A program made the position numbers and the translations under genes. From positions 1,290,001 to 1,322,000 of the forward strand of contig NZ_LT934425.1 in assembly GCF_900232105.1 (NCBI RefSeq): 32,000 nucleotides of DNA. Reading direction: 5' to 3'. The notes below the pieces were generated by a model. That model was not told the origin of the DNA and ran no database searches. It saw only the letters and a program-made list of their open reading frames with translations. This DNA comes from Candidatus Kuenenia stuttgartensis. GTDB taxonomy: Bacteria > Planctomycetota > Brocadiia > Brocadiales > Brocadiaceae. This document shows positions 7 to 32,000 of this stretch, piece by piece; the first letter of the stretch is position 1, and each line of letters begins with the position of its first letter.

Positions 7-1344
7 CTACTGAAAAACTACATCCAGTGACATGCGTTCCCACTTTTCCCATTCCTCCTGATGGAGAAATTTCTCCGGCAATTTTAATGTCATCTGCCGG
101 CTTCTCTCCACCAGTTTCCCTGCCACACGGATTAACCACAGTCTCATCGTCTTTACTTCCCACTGTTGTATCACTCCACCACTGAGCAATCCCATCCACT
201 TCAAAAGATTATACGCTAACACCGCACACTGAAATAGCGCAGCATTGGCCAAAAATTCACCCGTACGTATGTGCCCCGCATTCATCTGTCCTTTACTCTC
301 TTCTATCAAAGTCTCGCAGGTAGCCCTCTTTCCATAACAACGATGCGCTTCCATCGGACTTAACCGCTCCGTTGTAACGTAACAAAAATACTCATACACG
401 GACACTTCTACTAATTTCTTTTCTCTTTTGACCAATTGCCGCACTGCCACAAAACGTCTCGCACGATCCCACCCTGCACATCGATACCAAAATTCAGCCT
501 GTTCCCATCCTGGCTCCCCTTTCACCTCATTCCATTTCTGCCCTTCAAGCAATCCTTCCAGATTCTTCAGCTTTACCTTAATCAGATATCCCGCCAATAT
601 TGACTCAAGGTATTCAAGTAATTCTCCGGTAAAAAAACCGCTGTCTCCTCGAAATACCACCCTTACCCCCTTATTCATGTACGCCATACATTCCTTCATG
701 AACTCTACTACTCCGTTACTCGTGTAGGCGCTTCCACAGCGGAACCAACTATGTAATACCTCCTTTGTTTCTGCAATAAATGCCATTAAGGGATGATACG
801 CCTTCTGCCCCTTCTTGTGCGGATTATATCCTACCTCTGCACCCTCCTGTTTCCCATATACACCATCTACGGTAGAATCAACATCTATCCATACTTCGCA
901 AAGAGCACTCCTGAGTTTATGGCCTGATCTCACCGCACGCTTCCATATCTTTCCCCTAAACCGGTGGATCACCCCCGTCAGTTCCACTATATCTCCCTGA
1001 CTCGCCAGCTTCATAATACGTCCTATCGTAGTATCTACAGGTACCTCTTTCCACCCGGACATCTTCTTCAATACCTCATCTGTACACACCTTCATCACCT
1101 CTACCATCGATGTCGCCCCTGCTATCAACCCTATCACTACCATTTGTACCGCATCGACAAACTGATACCGGGCATTTGCTCCACGATCCTTATGGACCGC
1201 TTCATGGACTCTCTCCCGGAACATCAGCTTACCCATAAAATTCAATACCGGTAAAAGCCCTGCATGTACCGTTAAGCCTTTCCCGCTCATCTCTGCCTTG
1301 ATTTTCGGTTGTCTTTTGCTGTATTTTTTTGCTATATTCTTCAT
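7..1344 (-). CDS. DDE transposase, IS4 superfamily (IS1380-like)
   Basis: 445-aa ORF. Candidate catalytic contexts are WIDVDST and VVFRGDSGF. It also has the Y-x2-R-x3-E-x6-K signature (YGKRATCETLIEESK) characteristic of IS4/IS1380-type transposases. A spot count gives about 48% GC, above neighbouring genes. Confidence 0.85.
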   Translation of the reverse strand: MKNIAKKYSKRQPKIKAEMSGKGLTVHAGLLPVLNFMGKLMFRERVHEAVHKDRGANARYQFVDAVQMVVIGLIAGATSMVEVMKVCTDEVLKKMSGWKEVPVDTTIGRIMKLASQGDIVELTGVIHRFRGKIWKRAVRSGHKLRSALCEVWIDVDSTVDGVYGKQEGAEVGYNPHKKGQKAYHPLMAFIAETKEVLHSWFRCGSAYTSNGVVEFMKECMAYMNKGVRVVFRGDSGFFTGELLEYLESILAGYLIKVKLKNLEGLLEGQKWNEVKGEPGWEQAEFWYRCAGWDRARRFVAVRQLVKREKKLVEVSVYEYFCYVTTERLSPMEAHRCYGKRATCETLIEESKGQMNAGHIRTGEFLANAALFQCAVLAYNLLKWMGLLSGGVIQQWEVKTMRLWLIRVAGKLVERSRQMTLKLPEKFLHQEEWEKWERMSLDVVFQ

Positions 1345-2166: not shown

Positions 2167-3036
2167 TTATGACAATAATCCATAATCTTCTAATACAGTC
2201 TTTAGTCTTTCCTCATTTTCTTTCGTTATCTCGCACAGTGGCAAACGCATCTCACCGTTTAGCCTCCCTAATAATTTCATAGCCGTCTTGACAGGAATGG
2301 GATTTGTCTCGATAAACATCCCTTTGCATAACGGAAAGAGCTTGTAGTGGTATTCCAACGCCTTTCCGAAATTGCCTTCTAAGCAATGCCTGACGAGAGC
2401 GGCGGTATCGGACGGGGCTATATTGGCGGTTACCGATATTACCCCTTTCCCTCCCACGGACATAATAGGGAGGATAAGGGAATCTTCTCCGGAAAGAACT
2501 GTTATATTGCACAGTTGCGATATTTTAGTTGCCTGATCGATATTTCCGCTAGCATCTTTTATTGCAACAATGTTTTTCATTTCAGCAAGCCTTGCCACGG
2601 TTTCGGGCAAAATAGAAATACCCGTCCTGGAAGGTACATTATATATTACAATGGGAATATCAACCTCTTCTGCTATTGCTTTATAATGCCGGTAAAGCCC
2701 TTCAGGGGTCGGTTTATTATAATAAGGAGTAATGACCAACGCGCCGTCTGCCCCTGTTTTTCTGGCATGTTTTGTCAAATGGATGGCTTCTTTGGTATTG
2801 TTCGAACCCGCTCCCGCGATAACGGGTATTCTGCCGGATACATAATTTACCACCTCGCTTACCACCTGTTCATGTTCTTCAAAAGAAAGCGTTGCGGCCT
2901 CGCCGGTTGTGCCGCAGGGAACGATTCCATTTGTTCCGTTCTCAATATGAAATTCAACAAGCTCTTTTAATTTTTTATAATCAACTTGCCCATTATTAAA
3001 GGGGGTTACCAAGGCCACAAGGGAACCTTTAAACAT
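2167..3036 (-). CDS. dapA: 4-hydroxy-tetrahydrodipicolinate synthase (DapA)
   Basis: N-terminal VALVTPF....[13 protein letters not shown] and ..AIKDASGN.. motifs. I chose the ATG at 3036 (AGGAG 7 nt upstream) over the ORF-track TTG at 3042. Confidence 0.92.
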
Positions 3037-3166
3037 AATCAAGCTCCTTTTTCAGAAATAACAAAAACACAATTATGGTACGCAAGAAATAACGCTTTCT
3101 ACCTTTTGAAATGCAATCGTTTATTTAAGTCAGGCCTTCGGCGAAAATTCCTATATAAATTACAGG

Positions 3167-11357: not shown

Positions 11358-12350
11358 CTATAATTCATATGCCGCAACAATATCCCGAACCAGCTTATGG
11401 CGGACAATATCGGATTTGGCAAGATATACGAATGCTATATTGTCTACATTCATAAATCTTTCCTGGGCATCAATCAAACCCGATAACTCCCCGCCCGGCA
11501 AATCAACTTGTGTGATATCCCCGGTAACGACAACCTTTGATTTCGTACCAAGCCTTGTTAAAAATGTCTTCATCTGCTTTACCGTACAATTTTGCGCCTC
11601 ATCCAGAATAATAAAGGCGCTGTTTAAGGTTCTCCCGCGCATATATGCAAGCGGCAGGATCTCTATCAGATCGCTGTCCAGATATTTTTTCACCTGCCCG
11701 ACGTCCATCATATCCGCTAAAGCGTCATACAGCGGCCGCAAATAAGGACTTACCTTGTCTTTGATATCTCCCGGCAGATATCCAAGTTTTTCTCCTGCCT
11801 CTACCGCAGGCCTTGCAAGCACAATCCTTTTTACGTCTCCGCTTTTGAGAAAAGAAAGCGCCATCGCCACCGCCAGGTAGGTCTTTCCTGTTCCGGCAGG
11901 TCCAATGCAAAAAACAAGATCATTGTTTCTGATGGCCGCAATATAATTTGCCTGCCCCTCTGTCTTGGGCCTTGTGAACATCTCTTTTTGGAAAAGATTG
12001 ATTGCTTGTGCGGGTGCCCCTTCATCATAATTTTGTACATCCATAATGGTCTGCTCCACGTCCTTCACTCCCAGATTCCCCGTGAATCTAATTATTTCAA
12101 GCAATTTAATTAAGGACGTTCTAGCTGCTTCGACACCCTCTTTTTCGCCCGCCATCTTCAATACCCCGTTACGTGCTACTAATTTTACCCGAAAAGCATC
12201 CCTTATCAGGCGCAAATTTTTATCATGGTTTCCATATAAAAGGGACGCTTCATCATCATTTTCAAGGATTATTGCATCTTTAGCGGGTAAAAATTCCTGT
12301 ATATTTTCCTTTATTGCAACGTATTTTTGTGTTTCAACTCCTTGATTCAT
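11358..12350 (-). CDS. ybeZ: PhoH-family ATPase (YbeZ-like)
   Basis: Walker A GPAGTGKTYLAVA, ILDEAQN and VVTGDITQVDLP blocks. Classic phoH-ybeY adjacency. Confidence 0.9.
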   Translation of the reverse strand: MNQGVETQKYVAIKENIQEFLPAKDAIILENDDEASLLYGNHDKNLRLIRDAFRVKLVARNGVLKMAGEKEGVEAARTSLIKLLEIIRFTGNLGVKDVEQTIMDVQNYDEGAPAQAINLFQKEMFTRPKTEGQANYIAAIRNNDLVFCIGPAGTGKTYLAVAMALSFLKSGDVKRIVLARPAVEAGEKLGYLPGDIKDKVSPYLRPLYDALADMMDVGQVKKYLDSDLIEILPLAYMRGRTLNSAFIILDEAQNCTVKQMKTFLTRLGTKSKVVVTGDITQVDLPGGELSGLIDAQERFMNVDNIAFVYLAKSDIVRHKLVRDIVAAYEL

Positions 12351-24786: not shown

Positions 24787-25638
24787 TTATCTGAGCAGTA
24801 ACAAAGGGATATCGCTCGTACGCAGCATAGCGGTTGTATTGCTTCCGGCCAGAAACTGCCTGATACGTGAATGTCCATATGCCCCCATTACCATCAGATC
24901 AATTTGATTTTCTTTCTGATAGGTACCAAGCGCCGCCTCTACCTTGCCTTCGAGCGTCTTTTGTGTCACGTCAAAACCAGCCGAAACCAGCTTGTCAAAT
25001 GCTGATTCCAGTTGCGCTTTCCGTTCATCTGTACCACTGCATACCATAATCAGATGACAGGGCAGGCCTTTCAGCAACGGGCTTCCGGCCACCATATCAA
25101 GCGCTTTTTGGGCGGTCGGGCTGCCATCAAAGGCTATCATGAAGCAGTTTGGAGGGGAGAATTTTGATAGTACAATCAGAATAGGTTTGTGTATCGTGCG
25201 TATCACATTCTCAAGATTACTGCCAATCGGGTGAGCGGCGTTATCGTGTTCCGCACTCCGGCGTCCCATAACCAGAAGTCTCGTCTCGTCCTCAAGCTCC
25301 ATCAGGGTTTCTACAAGACTACCGTGTCGCTGAAGTGTGGAAATATCTTTTGCTCCGTCTTCTCTGACACGGCGCTCAGCGGCTTCCAGCATGTATTTTC
25401 CGTGCTCTCTCGCCAATTTACTATGCTTTTCTTCCAGCACTGTTAGTTCGTCAAGTAAATGCTCCTGGCTGCCTAGTCCGATTTTTCCGGTGAGGTCCCC
25501 CTTGATGGGATATTCTGACTTATCGAGTACATGAAGCAATTTCAAATGTGCGTTTAAGCGCTGGCTGGCCCACGCCCCGGCATCACATACTGCTGCGGAG
25601 ACGTGGAAGCGGCCAATACAGGTTATGATATTTGTCAT
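24787..25638 (-). CDS. Tandem universal stress protein (2x Usp domain)
   Basis: Two Usp-like halves, the second ending in MGAYGHSRIRQFLAGSNT. AGGAG lies 7 nt upstream. Immediately downstream of the SulP gene. Confidence 0.85.
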   Translation of the reverse strand: MTNIITCIGRFHVSAAVCDAGAWASQRLNAHLKLLHVLDKSEYPIKGDLTGKIGLGSQEHLLDELTVLEEKHSKLAREHGKYMLEAAERRVREDGAKDISTLQRHGSLVETLMELEDETRLLVMGRRSAEHDNAAHPIGSNLENVIRTIHKPILIVLSKFSPPNCFMIAFDGSPTAQKALDMVAGSPLLKGLPCHLIMVCSGTDERKAQLESAFDKLVSAGFDVTQKTLEGKVEAALGTYQKENQIDLMVMGAYGHSRIRQFLAGSNTTAMLRTSDIPLLLLR

Positions 25639-25649
25639 CGTTATTCTCC

Positions 25650-27140
25650 TTAGTGACCGGCAAGCAATTTCTCGACTTCTTCGGGTTTATCATGCACTCC
25701 GAATTGATCTACAATCGTGGCGCTTGCTTCATTCATGCCAATAATTTCAACATGTACTCCCTCACGTCTGAATTTAATTACAACTTTGTCCAGTGCGTAA
25801 ACTGATGTGACATCCCAAAAATGCGCTTCAGACAAATCAATGGTAACACGTTCCAGCGCTTCCTTAAAGTCAAATGAGTTGGTAAACCTATCCGCTGAAG
25901 CGTAAAATACCTGACCTATTACTTTATAAATACGCCATGGCAAAGCTTTGTTGATATGACTTTTTACCACAAAAATACGACTGATTTTGTTAGCAAAAAA
26001 CAATGACGACAATAAAACGCCGATGAGCACGCCGATAGCAAGATTATGTGTTGCAACCACCGCCGCAACCGTGGATACCATTACAATACTGGACGACAGC
26101 GGATTTTTTTTCAGGCTTCGGATAGAGCTCCATGAAAATGTCCCGATAGATACCATGATCATTACTGCCACCAGGGCGGCCATTGGGATTTGCTTTACCC
26201 ATGTTCCTGCAAAGACAACCATACTTAACAAAAACACCCCCGCCGCAAAAGCCACGAGACGCCCGCGTCCGCCCGATTTTATAGCGATAATAGACTGTCC
26301 AATCATGGCGCAACCTGCCATTCCTCCCATCAACCCTGCTCCGATATTGGCAATGCCCTGCCCCTTGCACTCCCGGTTTTTATCACTTTTTGAATCGGTT
26401 AAATCATCAACAATAGTGGCCGTCATCATAGATTCCAGCAAACCCACTACCATGAGCGCAAAGGAGTATGGGAAAATAATGGTCAGTGTCTCAAACGTCA
26501 GCGGGACTTCCGGCAATAAGAATATGGGGAGCGTATCAGGAAGCTTACCCATATCTCCAACAGTACGGACATCCAGTCCCATACCGACAGATACTGCCGT
26601 CACCGCTACAATACAAATAAGGGGAGAAGGCAGTATTTTACCCAAAACCGGTATATAAGGGAACAGATAGATAATACACAAACCGCCAGCCGCCAATGAA
26701 TATACATACCAATTAACATGCATAAGTTCAGGCAACTGCGCTATAAAAATCATAATAGCAAGGGCATTGACGAAACCCTTCACTACGGAACTTGACACAA
26801 AACGCATCAGGTTCCCTAATCTGAGAAATCCGGCGATGATTTGGAGGGCGCCCGTCAATAGCGTTGCCGCAAGAAGGTATTCCAGACCATGTTCTTTAAC
26901 CAGAGTGACCATGAGCAGCGCCATTGCACCCGTTGCCGCTGAGATCATACCGGTACGGCCGCCTGCAAAGGAAATGATCACAGAAATACAGAATGAGGCG
27001 TACAAACCCACCTTTGGGTCAACTCCGGCAATAATTGAGAATGCAATTGCCTCTGGGATAAGGGCAAGCGCTACAACAATACCGGCAAGCAGGTCACCCC
27101 GTACGTTTGAAAACCACTCTCTTTTCCAGTTTTTTAGCAT
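25650..27140 (-). CDS. SulP-family anion transporter with a C-terminal STAS domain
   Basis: 496 aa with the N-terminal SulP pattern ([24 protein letters not shown]), a polytopic core and a C-terminal STAS-like segment. Confidence 0.88.
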
Positions 27141-27334
27141 GTAGAACTATTTCTCCCGTAAATGAAACATGTGACAAACCAAACACTGACGTCGCTGGAT
27201 ACGAACAAGCAAAGCGTGGCAATAAAATATTTTTTTATTATTTTGTTATAATCAGGCAGATTTACGTCTTAATCAGGACGCACGCCTCGCAGATGACGTT
27301 CAAAACGCAGTCAACATAGAAAACGGCATGCAAT

Positions 27335-27491
27335 CTTTGAAGGGGAGCATTCCCGATTTTTTGTAAGTGTTCATGGAGTTGGGGCAAAACAACCCTGACA
27401 GGGTTTGAAACCCTGTCAGGGTTAACACTACTGTACGTTTTATTAAAACATGGCGGAAGTCACAAAAAATCGGGAATGCACCCCTTCAAAG
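27335..27491. repeat. MITE-like element: 30-bp terminal inverted repeats (29/30) around a 33-bp double palindrome
   Basis: CTTTGAAGGGGAGCATTCCCGATTTTTTGT (27335..27364) versus ACAAAAAATCGGGAATGCACCCCTTCAAAG (27462..27491). The core is AACCCTGACAGGGTT-tga-AACCCTGTCAGGGTT (27391..27423). Confidence 0.8.
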
Positions 27492-27634
27492 GAAAGAGAC
27501 CAGGCATGAATGATGGCATAGGTTTCACAAGCAAAAGTATATGGTGCTTGGCACAACAAGGGCGTAAAGATAACACAAAATAAAATTAATATCAAACAAA
27601 ATTGGAGGGACACTTCCCATATCACATATACATA

Positions 27635-27666
27635 TTCGAAAGGGGGAGTATTCCAGATTTTTTTGT
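27635..27666. repeat. Third, solo copy (about 85% identity) of the 30-bp terminal repeat of the MITE-like element
   Basis: TTCGAAAGGGGGAGTATTCCAGATTTTTTTGT, in the same orientation as the left TIR. Confidence 0.6.
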
Positions 27667-27737
27667 GCTAAGACCCATAATCAATAAACCTGATATTCTC
27701 ACATTAAATGTCTTTTTTAAAGGCAGGGTAAATTTTG

Positions 27738-27932
27738 GTAACACTTTAGTTCTATGAAACAAAAACGCTAGTTCCCAAGCTCCGGCTTGGGAACTAGCAT
27801 TTTTGTTTTTTGAAAAATTCCAAAAATAGTGGTGTTTGCCGCATAATGTAGGGGGCGAAGCATTTGCTATAAATTGTTATAAATAAGTTCATACCCAAAC
27901 GGGCAAATGCTCCGCCCCTACTAAAGTGTTAC
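27738..27932. repeat. PAL element copy 5, carrying a nested insertion of about 110 bp with its own long hairpin
   Basis: Termini GTAACACTTTAGTT / ACTAAAGTGTTAC. Perfect 14-bp core hairpin GCTAGTTCCCAAGC-tccg-GCTTGGGAACTAGC (27767..27798) followed by ATTTTTGTTTTTT. A second hairpin GTAGGGGGCGAAGCATTTGC (27848..27867) / GCAAATGCTCCGCCCCTAC (27903..27921) lies inside the right half. Confidence 0.7.
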
Positions 27933-28109
27933 AAATAATGTGATATTTTGTACCAAATAAACTTAGACGTAGCATCTTGTAAAAAAATTCAAAGATATGG
28001 TGGATTAAGCGATAGTGAATCCACCATTCAATAGCATCATTATTGTTGGATTTAGCTTCGCAGTTGCAAGGCACGTCTTGCCACTACAATTTACATAAAA
28101 AACCCTGCC

Positions 28110-28364
28110 ATGGTTAAAATAAAAAAGAATGCTTGCGATACAGATTGGCTGGATGAAAGGGAACGGGAGGAGTATAAAGACTTAATGGTAAAAGATGACA
28201 AAGAATTAGACACACTTATCAGGGAGGCGACCTCGACAGGGAGGCCGCTAAGTCAAGGGAAAAAAGCGGGTGTAAATGAAATATGGGAAGTGGTCATTTA
28301 TTTTCCCGTAACATGTTCAGCATCAATTTACCATTGCAGTGAAAAAGCGTGTGGTGCTGTGTAA
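28110..28364 (+). pseudogene. Doubtful ORF; possible C-terminal remnant of an IS200/RAYT-like (COG1943-type) protein
   Basis: Only a short stretch (DDKELDTLIREATSTGRPLSQ) resembles the L..IR.AT..G.PLG tail I recall from that family. No HUH or Tyr motif is found upstream in any frame, and the rest of the ORF is not protein-like. Confidence 0.15.
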
Positions 28365-28376
28365 TTGCCAGCACAT

Positions 28377-28415
28377 AAAAAGGAATCTGTGCGTACTTTG
28401 CACAGATTCCTTTTT
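28377..28415 (-). terminator. Rho-independent terminator of the octahaem gene (structurally bidirectional)
   Basis: Perfect 16-bp stem AAAAAGGAATCTGTGC / GCACAGATTCCTTTTT with a 7-nt loop. U-run on the minus strand. It begins 14 nt after the stop codon. Confidence 0.85.
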
Positions 28416-28428
28416 ATTCATTAACAAA

Positions 28429-30162
28429 TCAATGTTCTCTCACAGACTTTGATTCAGAATCCTGTTTAACATCATGAGTACCAGCTTCCATGCCGAGTTC
28501 CTTGAGTTTTCTCTCAATGTACTCAACCTCTTCAGCAGGTGCATGATGTGTGTCTAACCAGCCTGGATCTGGACAAAGATCGAAGATCGTCTTGCCAGGG
28601 TGATTCTTTACGATATATGGCCCGGTCAACTGATCCAGCCATTCGCCTGTTTTCCAGAACTGCTCAGGCTGCCATGAAATACCAACCTTCTTTTCCAAAG
28701 CAGCAAGCCTTCTTGCACGTGAAGCATTCTGCTTTACGTTGACCAACCAACGATCCATACCGAATGAACCGTCTGAGTAGGTAGCATCATTCCAGGAGCC
28801 GTGCGCCATGCCCTTGTAAATGTATGTCTGGAAGTAACCAACACTTTCAAAACAAAGCCTCTCCACATCAGTAACGTTTGACATTCTAAACTCTCCGGAT
28901 TCGCCAGTCTTACCACCGTAAGCTTCTCCATCATGGTACGCGCCAATCTTCAAACTCCAGATGTGCTGACCTGACCAATCAGGACAAAGATCCTTTGGCA
29001 TGGGGTCTAGTACACCGTCAATAAGAAGATCTTCCGCTACCTTGAATGTTTCACGATACTTCAAACTAGCGTCTTTAACAGACTCGTCCATCGCCTGCAA
29101 ATTCTCGCGGGCGAATCTTGGTGAATGACAGTCGTCACAGATAGATACCCAACGGTCTCTCTTTTCCTTCCAGAGTGGTGCACCACGATCAGCCATCGAC
29201 ATACCCATACTGGTATATACGATACTTGCTCTCTGCACGTTATGATGCCCGCCCCTCATATGACAGTACTGGCAGGTAGGACCAACGTAATCAGCATCAG
29301 AAAGCTTCTTTGAGAAGTCAAACTGTTCCGTATCCCACTTGTTAACCTGATATACCGTACCATGAAGACCTATATCATAAGCTTCCCAATCCCTGTGATC
29401 TTTACCCCAGTGACAGGTCTTGCATTGCTCGGAGCGTCTTGCAACTGCCGGATCAAACTGATGCCTCTGGTGGCAAGTGCTGCACCTTTCTTCAGGGCTG
29501 GTATGGCAGAAAGTACAACCCGCTGTATCTCCGGGTGGCCTTTCAATTGACCATGCACACTCAACCTGAGCGAAACTGGAACAAGATGCGTGGGAACCAA
29601 TTCCTCCCTGCCCTTGCTCATTGTACTGCGTTTCGTGACATTCCGCTGTCCCGCAAGCCTTTGATGAAGGCATAGTTAACTTCTGATGGTTGTTGCCGTG
29701 GCAGGTATCACAACCAGTTGGTGCCGGCTCTGCCTTTGAATGAGCACTCTTATTATAATCCCTTACAATGCCGGGAGTCATAACTGAGTGACAAGCAACA
29801 CACTGCTCCAGCTTAAATGTGCCCTTAATCGGGTTTGAAGGCCTTACCTCATCCCTGTTGTACATATAATCCGGGATGTAATAACGGTACGCAGGCAATG
29901 TCTTCCAAAACTTGCTGTATTTTCCCGGGTATGGTGACCTCTGTGCATCTTTTGGGTAACCCATATATTTTGCTTTCAAACCAGAGAAAAATACCTTACC
30001 ACTATTATCAGGCTCCCCAGGCATACCATAAACTTCGTGTGGTACCCAGTGAGTGATAATTTCTACAGCCTTGGCTTCTTTCACCATAAGGCTTGAAACA
30101 GTACCTATAACGCCACAACCAATCAACGCTGATGCCAATGTAACTTTCAAAAATTTACGCAT
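28429..30162 (-). CDS. Octahaem c-type cytochrome of the hydroxylamine oxidoreductase family (anammox hydrazine dehydrogenase / hydroxylamine oxidase-like)
   Basis: 577 aa with a Sec signal peptide (..KEAKA/VEI). Eight haem-binding sites: CVACH, CDTCH, CGTAECH, CTFCH, CSTCH, CKTCH, CQYCH, CDDCH. Strong AAGGAG RBS. Which paralogue class (HDH versus HOX versus other) it belongs to cannot be decided without alignment. Confidence 0.9.
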   Translation of the reverse strand: MRKFLKVTLASALIGCGVIGTVSSLMVKEAKAVEIITHWVPHEVYGMPGEPDNSGKVFFSGLKAKYMGYPKDAQRSPYPGKYSKFWKTLPAYRYYIPDYMYNRDEVRPSNPIKGTFKLEQCVACHSVMTPGIVRDYNKSAHSKAEPAPTGCDTCHGNNHQKLTMPSSKACGTAECHETQYNEQGQGGIGSHASCSSFAQVECAWSIERPPGDTAGCTFCHTSPEERCSTCHQRHQFDPAVARRSEQCKTCHWGKDHRDWEAYDIGLHGTVYQVNKWDTEQFDFSKKLSDADYVGPTCQYCHMRGGHHNVQRASIVYTSMGMSMADRGAPLWKEKRDRWVSICDDCHSPRFARENLQAMDESVKDASLKYRETFKVAEDLLIDGVLDPMPKDLCPDWSGQHIWSLKIGAYHDGEAYGGKTGESGEFRMSNVTDVERLCFESVGYFQTYIYKGMAHGSWNDATYSDGSFGMDRWLVNVKQNASRARRLAALEKKVGISWQPEQFWKTGEWLDQLTGPYIVKNHPGKTIFDLCPDPGWLDTHHAPAEEVEYIERKLKELGMEAGTHDVKQDSESKSVREH

Positions 30163-30174
30163 GATACTTCTCCT

Positions 30175-30271
30175 TTACAAAAATTCCTGTGTGGAATTAA
30201 TTATCTCAACAAAAATTTTTTACAAAAAACTAATATTATCAGGCATTGCGACAATCACCCCCTTACAAAAA
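30175..30271 (-). promoter_or_regulatory. Three exact TTACAAAAA motifs (minus strand TTTTTGTAA) at 43-45-bp spacing upstream of the octahaem gene; shorter TTACAAA copies at 30339 and 30547
   Basis: Exact 9-mers at 30175, 30220 and 30263. The first abuts the Shine-Dalgarno sequence. Function unknown. Confidence 0.3.
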
Positions 30272-30316
30272 GAACTTACACCTTTTTAAGAAAAGACTTT
30301 CGGTATCGGAAAATAG

Positions 30317-30523
30317 TTAAAAAGTATCCCAGCATTTTTTACAAATTTTAAAAGATAAAAATCTTTCATTCACGAACTTAAGCATTTTATTAAAAAAAAA
30401 CATTGCGCTGGTTACACTGAACGCTATTAATACGTAAATAACAATTGGCGTTAAAAAGAAGCTGGAAATTATCAGGAATAGAAGCTTTAGTGTTCTGCAA
30501 GACGATGTCGTTGTAATCATCAT
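30317..30523 (-). CDS. Possible small hydrophobic protein (68 aa) between the candidate sigma-54 promoter and the octahaem gene
   Basis: ATG at 30523 has GAAAGG 6 nt upstream. One or two predicted TM helices (LKLLFLIISSFFLTPIVIYVLIAFSV) and a C-terminal CKKC. It lies in very AT-rich DNA, where chance ORFs are common. Confidence 0.3.
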   Translation of the reverse strand: MMITTTSSCRTLKLLFLIISSFFLTPIVIYVLIAFSVTSAMFFFNKMLKFVNERFLSFKICKKCWDTF

Positions 30524-30594
30524 ATACACCCTTTCTTAATTGATTTTTACAAATAGAGTTGTCTGAAAAATTACTTAATCTGTATTTTTAAATA

Positions 30595-30609
30595 ACAATC
30601 GTTGTGCCA
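30595..30609 (-). promoter_or_regulatory. Candidate sigma-54 (-24/-12) promoter reading toward the small ORF and the octahaem gene
   Basis: The minus strand reads TGGCAC-AACGA-TTGT. This has exact consensus spacing relative to TGGCACG-N4-TTGC, but T replaces the conserved C at -12. A sigma-54 activator gene is adjacent. The site is about 430 nt upstream of the octahaem start codon. Confidence 0.35.
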
Positions 30610-30862
30610 ATGGCATCAAAAATCCGTATATCCTTTTGTTTAGGCAAATTACGGCTTATACGATTACAAACAACGCCCTTCATGATACGTAGGTGCTTAC
30701 GATAATTCGTTATTATTTACGGGATTTAATAAACATAAATAAATTGACGTTCAAGCAAATCCAAAATATTATAATCCAATTGAAAAACCGGTATGTTTTT
30801 GGAGTATTAACGATAGTGTGGAAAATGCATTGTTTTCGGATAAATAAAGGTTTATTAAAAAT

Positions 30863-32000
30863 ATGAATTTGGAATTCTTCCAATCTATCGCTATTTCCGT
30901 ATCAAACGAACGTTCATTGGATGTGGTTTTTCGTAATATTGTAAATGGGCTTGCTGAAGACTCTAATGTTGTGCTTGCCAGGATTTGGCTCATTGCCCCT
31001 GGTGACATATGTCATACATGTTATTGGCGGAAGGGGTGTCCGGATCAAACTAAATGTTTGCATCTGGTTGCAAGCAATGGAAGATCACTCTATAGTGAAA
31101 AATGGCCAACGTCTATTAAAGGACGTTATAAACGATTTCCCCTTTACACGTATTCCCGGAAAAATGTTAGCGCCTCAGGGAAAATAGGCTATATAGGTGG
31201 AACCGGAAATGCTGTTTTACGCAATGATATCTATGAAAATCCGGATTGGTTATTGGACACTGAATGGGCGCAAAGAGAAAAAATAGCAAGTTTTGATGGG
31301 CAGCCGTTGGTGTTTCGAAATGAAACACTTGGTGTGCTTGCGCTTTTCAGCAGAAAAGAGTTGGATCAGGCATTGTTGATCATGCTCAGGACTTTTGCTT
31401 CGAACGCTGCCGCTGCCATCGCCAATGCAAGAGCATTTGAAGAAATAGAACAATTACATCAACAGTTGGAACTGGAAAATGAGTATCTCAGAGATGAAAT
31501 CAAAGAAGCATATTCATTTGCGGATATTGTTGGCCAAGGTTCATCCTTACAAAAAACACTCCAACAAATAGAACTTGTGGCGCCAACTAACGCAACGGTT
31601 CTCATAAAAGGTGAAACCGGTACCGGAAAAGAACTTATTGCCCTGGCGATTCATCAACGTAGCAAACGAAAAAATAACCCGCTTATTAAAGTTAATTGTG
31701 CTTCAATCCCGAAGGAACTTTTTGAAAGTGAGTTTTTTGGACATATAAAAGGCGCTTTTACCGGGGCAATTAAGGACAGGGTTGGTCGTTTTCAACTTGC
31801 TGACGGAGGAACTATTTTCCTTGATGAAGTGGGAGAAATACCAATAGAGTTACAAGGCAAATTGCTTCGGGTGCTTCAGGAAGGGGAATATGAGATTATC
31901 GGAGAGGGAAAGACTCGTCGTGTTGATGTAAGGGTTATCGCCGCAACCAACAGAAATCTGGAAAAGGAGATGGAATCAAAACAGTTTCGGCAGGATCTTT
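30863..32000 (+). CDS. Sigma-54-dependent transcriptional activator, GAF sensor + AAA+ domain (3' end outside the window)
   Basis: Absent from the ORF track because there is no stop in the window. I translated it by hand: 379 codons open from the ATG at 30863, with an in-frame TAA at 30845. Motifs are Walker A GETGTGKE, GAFTGA (31751..31768), Walker B TIFLDEVGE and RVIAATN. The N-terminal 190 aa are GAF-like. Confidence 0.9.
   Translation, partial: MNLEFFQSIAISVSNERSLDVVFRNIVNGLAEDSNVVLARIWLIAPGDICHTCYWRKGCPDQTKCLHLVASNGRSLYSEKWPTSIKGRYKRFPLYTYSRKNVSASGKIGYIGGTGNAVLRNDIYENPDWLLDTEWAQREKIASFDGQPLVFRNETLGVLALFSRKELDQALLIMLRTFASNAAAAIANARAFEEIEQLHQQLELENEYLRDEIKEAYSFADIVGQGSSLQKTLQQIELVAPTNATVLIKGETGTGKELIALAIHQRSKRKNNPLIKVNCASIPKELFESEFFGHIKGAFTGAIKDRVGRFQLADGGTIFLDEVGEIPIELQGKLLRVLQEGEYEIIGEGKTRRVDVRVIAATNRNLEKEMESKQFRQDL

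Follow-up and report, generated by a model that had tools for sequence, protein, structure and literature searches.

An intergenic region of ~700 bp in Candidatus Kuenenia stuttgartensis separates an activator gene from a hydrazine dehydrogenase (HDH) gene and, judged from comparative sequence data, is probably a divergent sigma-54 control region from which the activator drives a small open reading frame (smORF) and an HDH of the kustd1340 type. The region is part of a 32,000-nucleotide stretch of contig NZ_LT934425.1 (assembly GCF_900232105.1, positions 1,290,001 to 1,322,000 of the forward strand), which we refer to as a whole as the window. An annotation made from these letters alone, here called the original prediction, had proposed a sigma-54 circuit controlling an anammox octahaem enzyme. 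A circuit of this kind gains strong comparative backing from a conserved promoter, from dyads at a fixed distance and from recurrent linkage of activator and HDH genes, although it would concern only the second HDH paralogue, the kustc0694-type copy having a sigma-70-like promoter. In the proposed mechanism, a sigma-70-like promoter of its own probably supplies the activator, whose Fis-type helix-turn-helix (HTH) would bind a CGA-N4-TCG dyad at 30700-30709. Switching of the N-terminal GAF domain would then allow the activator to assemble into an ATPase ring. The target of this ring would be sigma-54 RNA polymerase, which it would open at TGGCAC-N5-TTGT, 100 bp from the dyad (minus strand, 30594-30609). 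The resulting transcript would carry the 68-aa membrane smORF and the kustd1340-type HDH gene. The features discussed are collected in Table 1.

The candidate -24/-12 element, TGGCACAACGATTGT, was found at 30595-30609 on the minus strand, which is the HDH strand, and 254 bp separate it from the start codon of the activator gene. It is the TGGCAC-N5-TTGT site, with T for C at -12, that had been predicted ~250 bp from the activator gene, and transcription from it would start near 30583-30585. For comparison, we fetched loci encoding orthologues and homologues of the activator (individual loci carry L numbers). The form TGG(C/T)A(C/T)-N5-TTGT recurs beside activator orthologues, and in an alignment of seven anammox loci TGG and TTG were invariant while the five spacer bases varied. 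Loci of non-anammox homologues, namely seven from Bryobacterales together with L019, L034 and L035, contain three dyads ~20 bp apart, followed by a -24/-12 element directed away from the activator gene. Canonical GC occupies the same -12 position in L019, L034 and L035, Bryobacterales have either GT or GC, and GC is found in L025 and L028 as well. We take GT at -12 to be a tolerated variant among the promoters of this activator family.

The position of the dyads is equally constant. Counted from the T of the -24 TGG, they lie at -121, -100 and -81, each within 2 nt, in 20 loci drawn from anammox bacteria, Bryobacterales and L019/L034/L035. When all 920 kb of collected sequence were scanned for a promoter combined with a dyad, 40 of the 1879 TGG-N9-TG sites qualified, against ~5.4 expected by chance; the 40 include repeat copies of some loci, and nearly all adjoin genes for the activator or for S149, a small secreted protein described below. 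At convergent or rearranged loci, the dyad directly abuts a sigma-70-like -35 element before the activator gene. Because it recurs in this way at the activator's own promoter, we take CGA-N4-TCG to be the activator's operator. We likewise regard the -24/-12 site and dyad as real because they are conserved with fixed geometry across phyla, and not on the strength of in-window statistics. As to conservation of the TGGCAC..TTGT site upstream of HAO-family genes, a point raised by the original prediction, the site is kept across genera with its dyad geometry, but the gene that usually follows is S149, and only in some loci HDH.

Two further promoter candidates face the activator gene. The element at 30744-30772 is the sole sigma-70-type match in 30100-30900, and its TTGACG is kept in K. 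hertensis. A possible sigma-54 autoregulatory site, TGGAAAATGCATTGTT, at 30819-30834 (plus strand), lies 44 nt before the ATG of the activator gene and shares the dyad, here at -119; it lacks conservation in K. hertensis, and we regard it as a chance match. An Rfam scan of the intergenic region and of the whole window returned no match.

Table 1. Positions of the control region, genes and sensor loop in the window, and corresponding elements at related loci.
Feature	Location	Strand	Sequence	Basis or remarks
Sigma-54-type -24/-12 promoter	Window, 30594..30609	-	TGGCACAACGATTGTT	GG at -24, GT in place of GC at -12; 7-locus alignment, dyad geometry in 20 loci
Palindromic dyad (CGA-N4-TCG), candidate activator binding site (upstream activating sequence)	Window, 30700..30709		CGATAATTCG	100 nt upstream of the -24 element
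Candidate sigma-70-like promoter of the activator gene	Window, 30744..30772	+	TTGACG-17-TATTAT	~90 nt upstream of the ATG; 10/12 positions; weak evidence
Small hydrophobic ORF (smORF, 68 aa) with ribosome-binding site	Window, 30317..30523	-	AGAAAGGG (ribosome-binding site)	Between promoter and HDH; ORF list, Brocadia homologue
5' portion of the gene for an enhancer-binding protein (Cys4-GAF / sigma-54 AAA+ / Fis-HTH), encoding aa 1-379 of 540	Window, 30863..32000	+		Translation, Pfam, identical full-length P0001; gene runs past the window end
C-x2-C-x5-C-x5-C loop codons (C50, C53, C59, C65); the loop is inserted after GAF strand beta1 and before beta2 and is a candidate site for a metal or Fe-S cluster	Window, 31010..31057	+	CHTCYWRKGCPDQTKC	Alignments, AlphaFold2 model
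HDH, 577-aa kustd1340-type paralogue, putative regulated gene	Window, 28429..30162	-		NF052343, 6HIF match, length, CX4CH
-24/-12 site	K. hertensis		TGGCACAAGGATTGTT	
-24/-12 site	Brocadia		TGGCACATGATTTGTT	
-24/-12 site	Jettenia		TGGCATATGGTTTGTT	
-24/-12 site	L014		TGGTACGTCATTTGTT	
-24/-12 site	L032		TGGTACACAGTTTGTT	
-24/-12 site	L033		TGGCATTAGATTTGTT	
-24/-12 site	Scalindua-type		TGGCACAAGATTTGAG	
-24/-12 elements with canonical GC	Three non-anammox loci		TGGAACGCCTGTTGC, TGGCACGGAAGATGC, TGGTATGGCTTTTGC	
S149	L009, 67-516	-		
S149	L005, 10228-10677	-		
S149	L010, 11980-12426	-		
S149	L033, 8001-8456	+		

Translation of 30863-32000 (plus strand) yielded an uninterrupted frame of 379 codons with Walker A GETGTGKE, GAFTGA and Walker B TIFLDEVGE. 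Together with the Pfam matches, this establishes the GAF activator that the original prediction had read from 30863 and reported as missing from the ORF track; the frame continues past the window end, which is why mechanical ORF lists omit it. Pfam assigned Sigma54_activat (PF00158) to aa 222-379 (E 2.6e-65 for the window fragment, 3.8e-70 for the full-length protein) and, weakly, GAF to aa 104-186 (24.7 bits against a cutoff of 22.4). The full-length protein P0001, of 540 aa and 100% identical to the window fragment, adds AAA_lid_14 and a Fis-type HTH_8 (aa 493-536, 22.1 bits against a cutoff of 22), both encoded outside the window, and thereby supplies the C-terminal HTH that had still to be found. 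GAFTGA spans aa 297-302, and G297, F299, T300, G301 and A302 were invariant in 27 homologues. The closest homologues carry Candidatus Kuenenia, Brocadia, Jettenia or Scalindua annotation. Some sources label homologues “fhlA” or “hydrogenase-4 transcriptional activator”; the activator scored far below the equivalog cutoffs of both FhlA (246 against 830) and NifA (274 against 529).

The window itself contains no rpoN gene, and the signs of sigma-54 in Kuenenia are indirect: Kuenenia encodes further sigma-54 activators, including a 335-aa protein in L001 and kuste2857, and a reference in PMC3343278 concerns rpoN in one planctomycete. Our literature searches yielded nothing relevant on rpoN for Kuenenia or for anammox bacteria in general. 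The anammox orthologues of the activator have an extra insertion of ~9 residues after a conserved RFPL (YTYSRKNVSAS in the window; aa 94-104, nt about 31142-31174), which the non-anammox homologues do not have. Downstream of the activator gene in K. stuttgartiensis assemblies, past the end of the window (L001 2963-5930; L002 3124-5693), lie genes for a KaiC-like ATPase (582 aa) and KaiB-like proteins; the second activator of 335 aa, which is sensor-less, is also found there and is followed by TGGCAG-N5-TTGCC before an ABM-domain gene. In a Kuenenia-related metagenome-assembled genome (L031, contig JALDQZ010000001.1, 6478-8001), the activator is called at 434 aa, compared with ~540 aa in other family members. 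Its N-terminus has apparently been lost, because the matching cluster, P0049, covers 69% of the 379-aa query. This locus is without the -24 TGGCAC and retains the -12 region, the leader and S149, so that in sequence it looks like a natural deletion of both sensor and promoter.

The putative sensor of the activator contains a four-cysteine loop, CHTCYWRKGCPDQTKC, at aa 50-65, and translation confirmed the C-x2-C-x5-C-x5-C arrangement that had been predicted at nt 31010-31057. All four cysteines were invariant in 27 and then in 119 aligned homologues, the larger alignment reaching down to ~50% identity and including non-anammox bacteria. The possibility that the motif lacks conservation thus falls away, since neither orthologues nor distant homologues depart from it; G47, D48, L66, H67, L68, A70 and S71 beside the loop vary little or not at all. 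Modelled with AlphaFold2, aa 1-216 form a GAF domain and then a long helix (predicted local distance difference test score [pLDDT] 86, predicted template modelling score 0.83), with the loop inserted between strands 36-46 and 64-72. A phmmer search with aa 1-196 against 1.84 billion cluster representatives returned 5217 matches at E <= 1e-3 and 880 at E <= 1e-10. When the 150 top-ranking representatives at 50% identity were inspected, 103 proved to carry the exact C-x2-C-x5-C-x5-C (consensus C..C.MR.ECPDQT.C). Architectures containing the Cys-loop GAF domain were sigma-54 activators with an extra GAF or PAS domain, histidine kinases (HisKA or HisKA_3 with HATPase_c) and one Ser/Thr kinase. Because it is fused to outputs this varied, we read it as an autonomous, modular sensor, which is widespread and not specific to anammox bacteria. 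Foldseek with the GAF model recovered generic GAF domains only (best 3ci6, E 3.3e-9) and no relative with the Cys loop, a sequence search of the PDB with the GAF domain gave only noise and no relative, and no description of a C-x2-C-x5-C GAF motif turned up in literature searches.

We infer that a metal centre is bound by the loop, most probably an Fe-S cluster labile to redox change, O2 or nitric oxide (NO) or else a Zn-thiolate site, and that modification of this centre is the signal. Possible, if somewhat unlikely, is that the four cysteines form only a structural zinc knuckle that steadies the GAF domain, which would respond instead to a partner protein or to a small-molecule ligand of its canonical pocket; the cis-regulatory model would then be unchanged. 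PexR, another GAF activator, binds Zn/Fe (PMC12754779). Strict invariance of the cysteines fits a structural as well as a sensory site, a CxxC pair, of which the loop has one, is a typical element of zinc knuckles, and the remainder of the GAF fold is ordinary by Foldseek. Against a purely structural role, cysteines spaced C-x2-C-x5-C, often with CP following the third of them, resemble cluster-binding motifs, and the module recurs N-terminally on many signalling proteins, as is usual for sensors. Moreover, neither the 27- nor the 119-homologue alignment contains a conserved His, Cys or Asp at positions 100-140, where PexR has its ligands; the residues conserved there are G109, W129 and W135.

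The octahaem HAO-family gene on the other side of the intergenic region encodes HDH, scoring 1251 bits against a cutoff of 900 with NCBIfam NF052343 and 1363 bits over aa 1-567 with PDB 6HIF. Two internal residues and the C-terminal tail distinguish its product from the crystallized kustc0694 protein. The CX4CH haem-3 motif, called diagnostic for HDH in PMC6469936, is present as CGTAECH, and the length of 577 aa equals that of kustd1340 (PMC3482989). By sequence and length, the window holds the second, kustd1340-type HDH copy. A kustc0694-type HDH, of 582 aa, is encoded at locus L036. Nucleotide similarity between L036 and the window is 94.5% and extends from 7 nt before the ATG to near codon 563; the upstream sequences are unrelated, and that of L036 contains a sigma-70-like TTGACT-16-TATAAT (11/12 positions). 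Since similarity begins only 7 nt before the ATG, the two paralogues share coding sequence but not control regions. A duplication that spans the coding region only, combined with promoters of different classes, could explain divergent behaviour of near-identical HDH genes. We infer that the circuit makes the kustd1340-type HDH conditional, the kustc0694-type copy being constitutive from its sigma-70 promoter. The latter is the abundant, highly expressed copy (PMC7709395), and kustd1340 is described as expressed only in stressed cells, with regulation “yet unknown,” in PMC12053348, which cites Hu 2013.

Among 58 metagenome HDH loci, S149, smORF or activator was present in six, and 18 had another HAO-like gene ~2.7 kb upstream, without activator or S149. 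Downstream of HDH in the window, on the same strand, are genes for a SulP/STAS transporter and a tandem universal stress protein (24787-27140, minus strand); the 1.3-kb gap between HDH and the SulP gene (27141-28428) is AT-rich and has no convincing ORF. A DDE transposase gene lies at the window start (7-1344, minus strand).

Across anammox bacteria, the usual target of the activator module appears from gene order to be S149, not HDH. At the loci of K. hertensis, Jettenia, L014 and L033 and at Scalindua-type loci, the gene downstream of the -24/-12 site is that of S149. The protein has 149-151 aa, a signal peptide, a mature N-terminus of ANGNKGDWGF and two conserved cysteines, and is nearly always encoded beside the activator and behind the activator's promoter. 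We collected 74 homologues (90%-identity cluster representatives), and every source-named one was annotated as anammox. Pfam and PDB sequence searches with S149 gave no match; an AlphaFold2 model (pLDDT 71) predicts an OB-like barrel whose Foldseek matches (RPA, cold-shock domains and CcmE) all have E > 1e-3 and are too weak to use. The HDH assembly factor Kustc1130 was considered as an identity for S149 and ruled out: Kustc1130, of ~10 kDa, matures to YDVKPAKL (PMC6469936) and S149 to ANGNKGDWGF. A leader of ~120 nt before S149 is conserved at the nucleotide level (e.g., ttgcaagattgtcag...gtgacagtatgtaccgtt; L010 about 12520-12430, L084 about 320-410 and L044 about 2990-3080). It contains a short upstream ORF whose reading frame is not conserved, and the leader could be a structured 5' untranslated region.

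In the window, the S149 gene is absent, and it may be lost in K. stuttgartiensis because no member was seen there. Brocadia (L010) has the order promoter, S149, hydrophobic smORF of 57 aa and HDH (86% identical to that of the window), with the activator convergent downstream; ~11 tandem copies of AGCCACAA lie between S149 and the smORF (about 11850-11940). Metagenome loci L044 and L045 keep the Brocadia gene order, and L084 and L090 have promoter, S149, smORF and HDH on contigs that end inside HDH, the activator being beyond view. The window smORF is 41% identical over 46 aa (E 8e-9) to the Brocadia 57-aa ORF directly upstream of HDH, and all four metagenome loci have smORF homologues at the same position. 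A comparison of the HDH-proximal upstream DNA of window and Brocadia found no similarity, only the smORF protein being conserved. The Kuenenia arrangement would accordingly be that of Brocadia minus S149. The smORF and its ribosome-binding site, AGAAAGGG, begin ~70 nt past the promoter, and 154 nt separate the smORF from HDH.

These arrangements raise the question of whether the promoter reaches HDH at all. It is conceivable, though quite improbable, that the sigma-54 promoter serves only the leader and smORF, as the remnant of an ancestral S149 operon, and that HDH is transcribed from an unrecognized nearer promoter, adjacency having little regulatory meaning. S149 is the common target, Jettenia and K. 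hertensis have no HDH at that position, and a gap of 154 nt lies between smORF and HDH; in Brocadia, S149 and HDH are ~500 nt apart with two weak sigma-70-like matches between them. The Brocadia sigma-70 matches, however, are at chance level (3 against 4.0 expected), and in the window neither a terminator-like nor a sigma-70-like site was found between the promoter or smORF and HDH. The smORF-HDH pair is kept downstream of the same promoter in Brocadia-type loci, and the activator gene remains linked to HDH in Kuenenia, Brocadia, L013, L015 and Scalindua-type loci.

A further question is whether the system is an anammox version of a known GAF-type regulator. NorR of E. coli and Ralstonia resembles the window activator in its GAF / AAA+ / HTH order, its divergent transcription from the target and its multiple tandem upstream dyads, and its sensor is a mononuclear non-haem iron in the GAF pocket. 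The window activator differs in that its ligand candidates are four cysteines in a beta1-beta2 insertion, in its operator sequence and in its targets, which would be S149, smORF and HDH, compared with NO-detoxification genes of the norVW / hmp type. The GAF domain of NorR gates its ATPase (PMC2941729). In PexR, an H2O2-sensing regulator of Myxococcus xanthus, a metal-binding autoinhibitory GAF domain is combined with three dyad repeats upstream of a sigma-54 promoter, a divergent arrangement like that of the window system and binding also at a sigma-A-type promoter (PMC12754779). Its ligands H102, H120, C122 and D140, compared through their published positions, are not conserved here; PexR is not described with a C-x2-C-x5-C-x5-C loop, and its targets are ahpC and katB (PMC12754779). 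Regulators of the FhlA / NifA type share the architecture, but the window activator has one GAF domain, not two, and no evident link to formate or 2-oxoglutarate.

Cysteine motifs occur in other sensors as well. FNR and WhiB-like [4Fe-4S] sensors have three ligands spaced C-x2-C-x5-C and sense O2 or NO by cluster chemistry. The spacing is like that of the Cys4-GAF domain, the folds and output mechanisms are entirely different, and we take the resemblance as a lead only. VnfA and AnfA of Azotobacter are GAF sigma-54 activators of nitrogenase genes with a Cys-rich motif that is reported to bind an Fe-S cluster, a short C-x-C-x4-C at the extreme N-terminus, unlike the 16-residue loop at positions 50-65 here. 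PMC9542535 discusses this family.

The original prediction had drawn an analogy with NorR and proposed a nitrogen-oxide- or redox-responsive circuit. A NorR-like sensor that detects NO through a GAF-bound metal and tunes an HAO-family enzyme to nitrogen-oxide levels would fit the shared domain order, the top NCBIfam match of the activator and the place of the enzyme in nitrogen-intermediate metabolism. We nevertheless consider it very unlikely. The match (NF003451) reached only 277.6 bits against a cutoff of 476 and covered aa 141-379 of the fragment query, leaving the N-terminal sensor, Cys loop included, unaligned; the Cys sites also differ from the pocket of the NorR/PexR type. Nothing points to NO or hydroxylamine as the signal. 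Non-anammox homologues with the same Cys loop and operators adjoin genes for PNPOx-like flavoproteins, alpha/beta hydrolases, NmrA-like reductases and DUF1348 proteins, in one case lying among hyp / NiFe-hydrogenase (maturation) genes, and not NO-detoxification genes. These neighbours give a weak hint of a redox or oxidant-stress theme over nitrogen oxides.

Several observations weigh against an activator-driven sigma-54 promoter for HDH. The consensus TGGCAC-N5-TTGC with one mismatch has two matches in the window against 2.35 expected, which is chance level, and the -12 element has GT, not canonical GC; the exact string of the promoter site has an expectation of 0.06 in the window, in a test made post hoc. 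The leader from promoter to HDH is long, at ~420 nt. One perfect dyad is left in the window, at -100, compared with three in the non-anammox loci, and only three CGA-N4-TCG dyads occur in the whole 32 kb. One preprint gives high RPKM (reads per kilobase per million mapped reads) for both HDH copies together. In several anammox genomes, activator paralogues have no HDH or S149 nearby (L007, L008). That TGGCAC-N5-TTGT is merely a chance match in AT-rich intergenic DNA, as the in-window count and the missing -12 C would allow, is effectively refuted by the GG and TG that stay invariant across genera beside a variable spacer and by the fixed site-to-dyad distance in the 20 loci. One of the activator paralogues, in another Brocadiaceae genome (L007 10129-11068, minus strand), is followed by two small CxxCH ORFs, possibly a split cytochrome, in place of S149 or HDH.

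For the sensor and its signal we offer a speculative and rather unlikely extension of the proposed circuit. The Cys4-GAF domain may be an unrecognized class of Fe-S (FNR/Wbl-like) or thiolate-metal sensor that sigma-54 activators, histidine kinases and Ser/Thr kinases use across phyla and that in anammox bacteria reports stress of a redox or nitrogen-intermediate kind (an imbalance of O2, NO, hydroxylamine or hydrazine). It would switch on a back-up module consisting of S149 (anammox-specific, secreted and OB-fold-like), the membrane smORF and the second HDH.

We found no description in the literature of transcriptional control of the core anammox catabolic enzymes, and to our knowledge anammox bacteria have no routine genetic system. 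Against this background, the locus offers a concrete and portable hypothesis, with a named activator, an operator (CGA-N4-TCG in fixed phasing) and a -24/-12 promoter. For kustd1340, the second HDH gene, whose regulation PMC12053348 states to be “yet unknown,” it proposes a candidate mode of control. The Cys loop itself appears from its distribution to be a general sensor feature rather than an anammox speciality, and the NorR/NO framing is unsupported. Once identified, the cofactor and signal of the four-Cys GAF loop would annotate many regulators and kinases at once.

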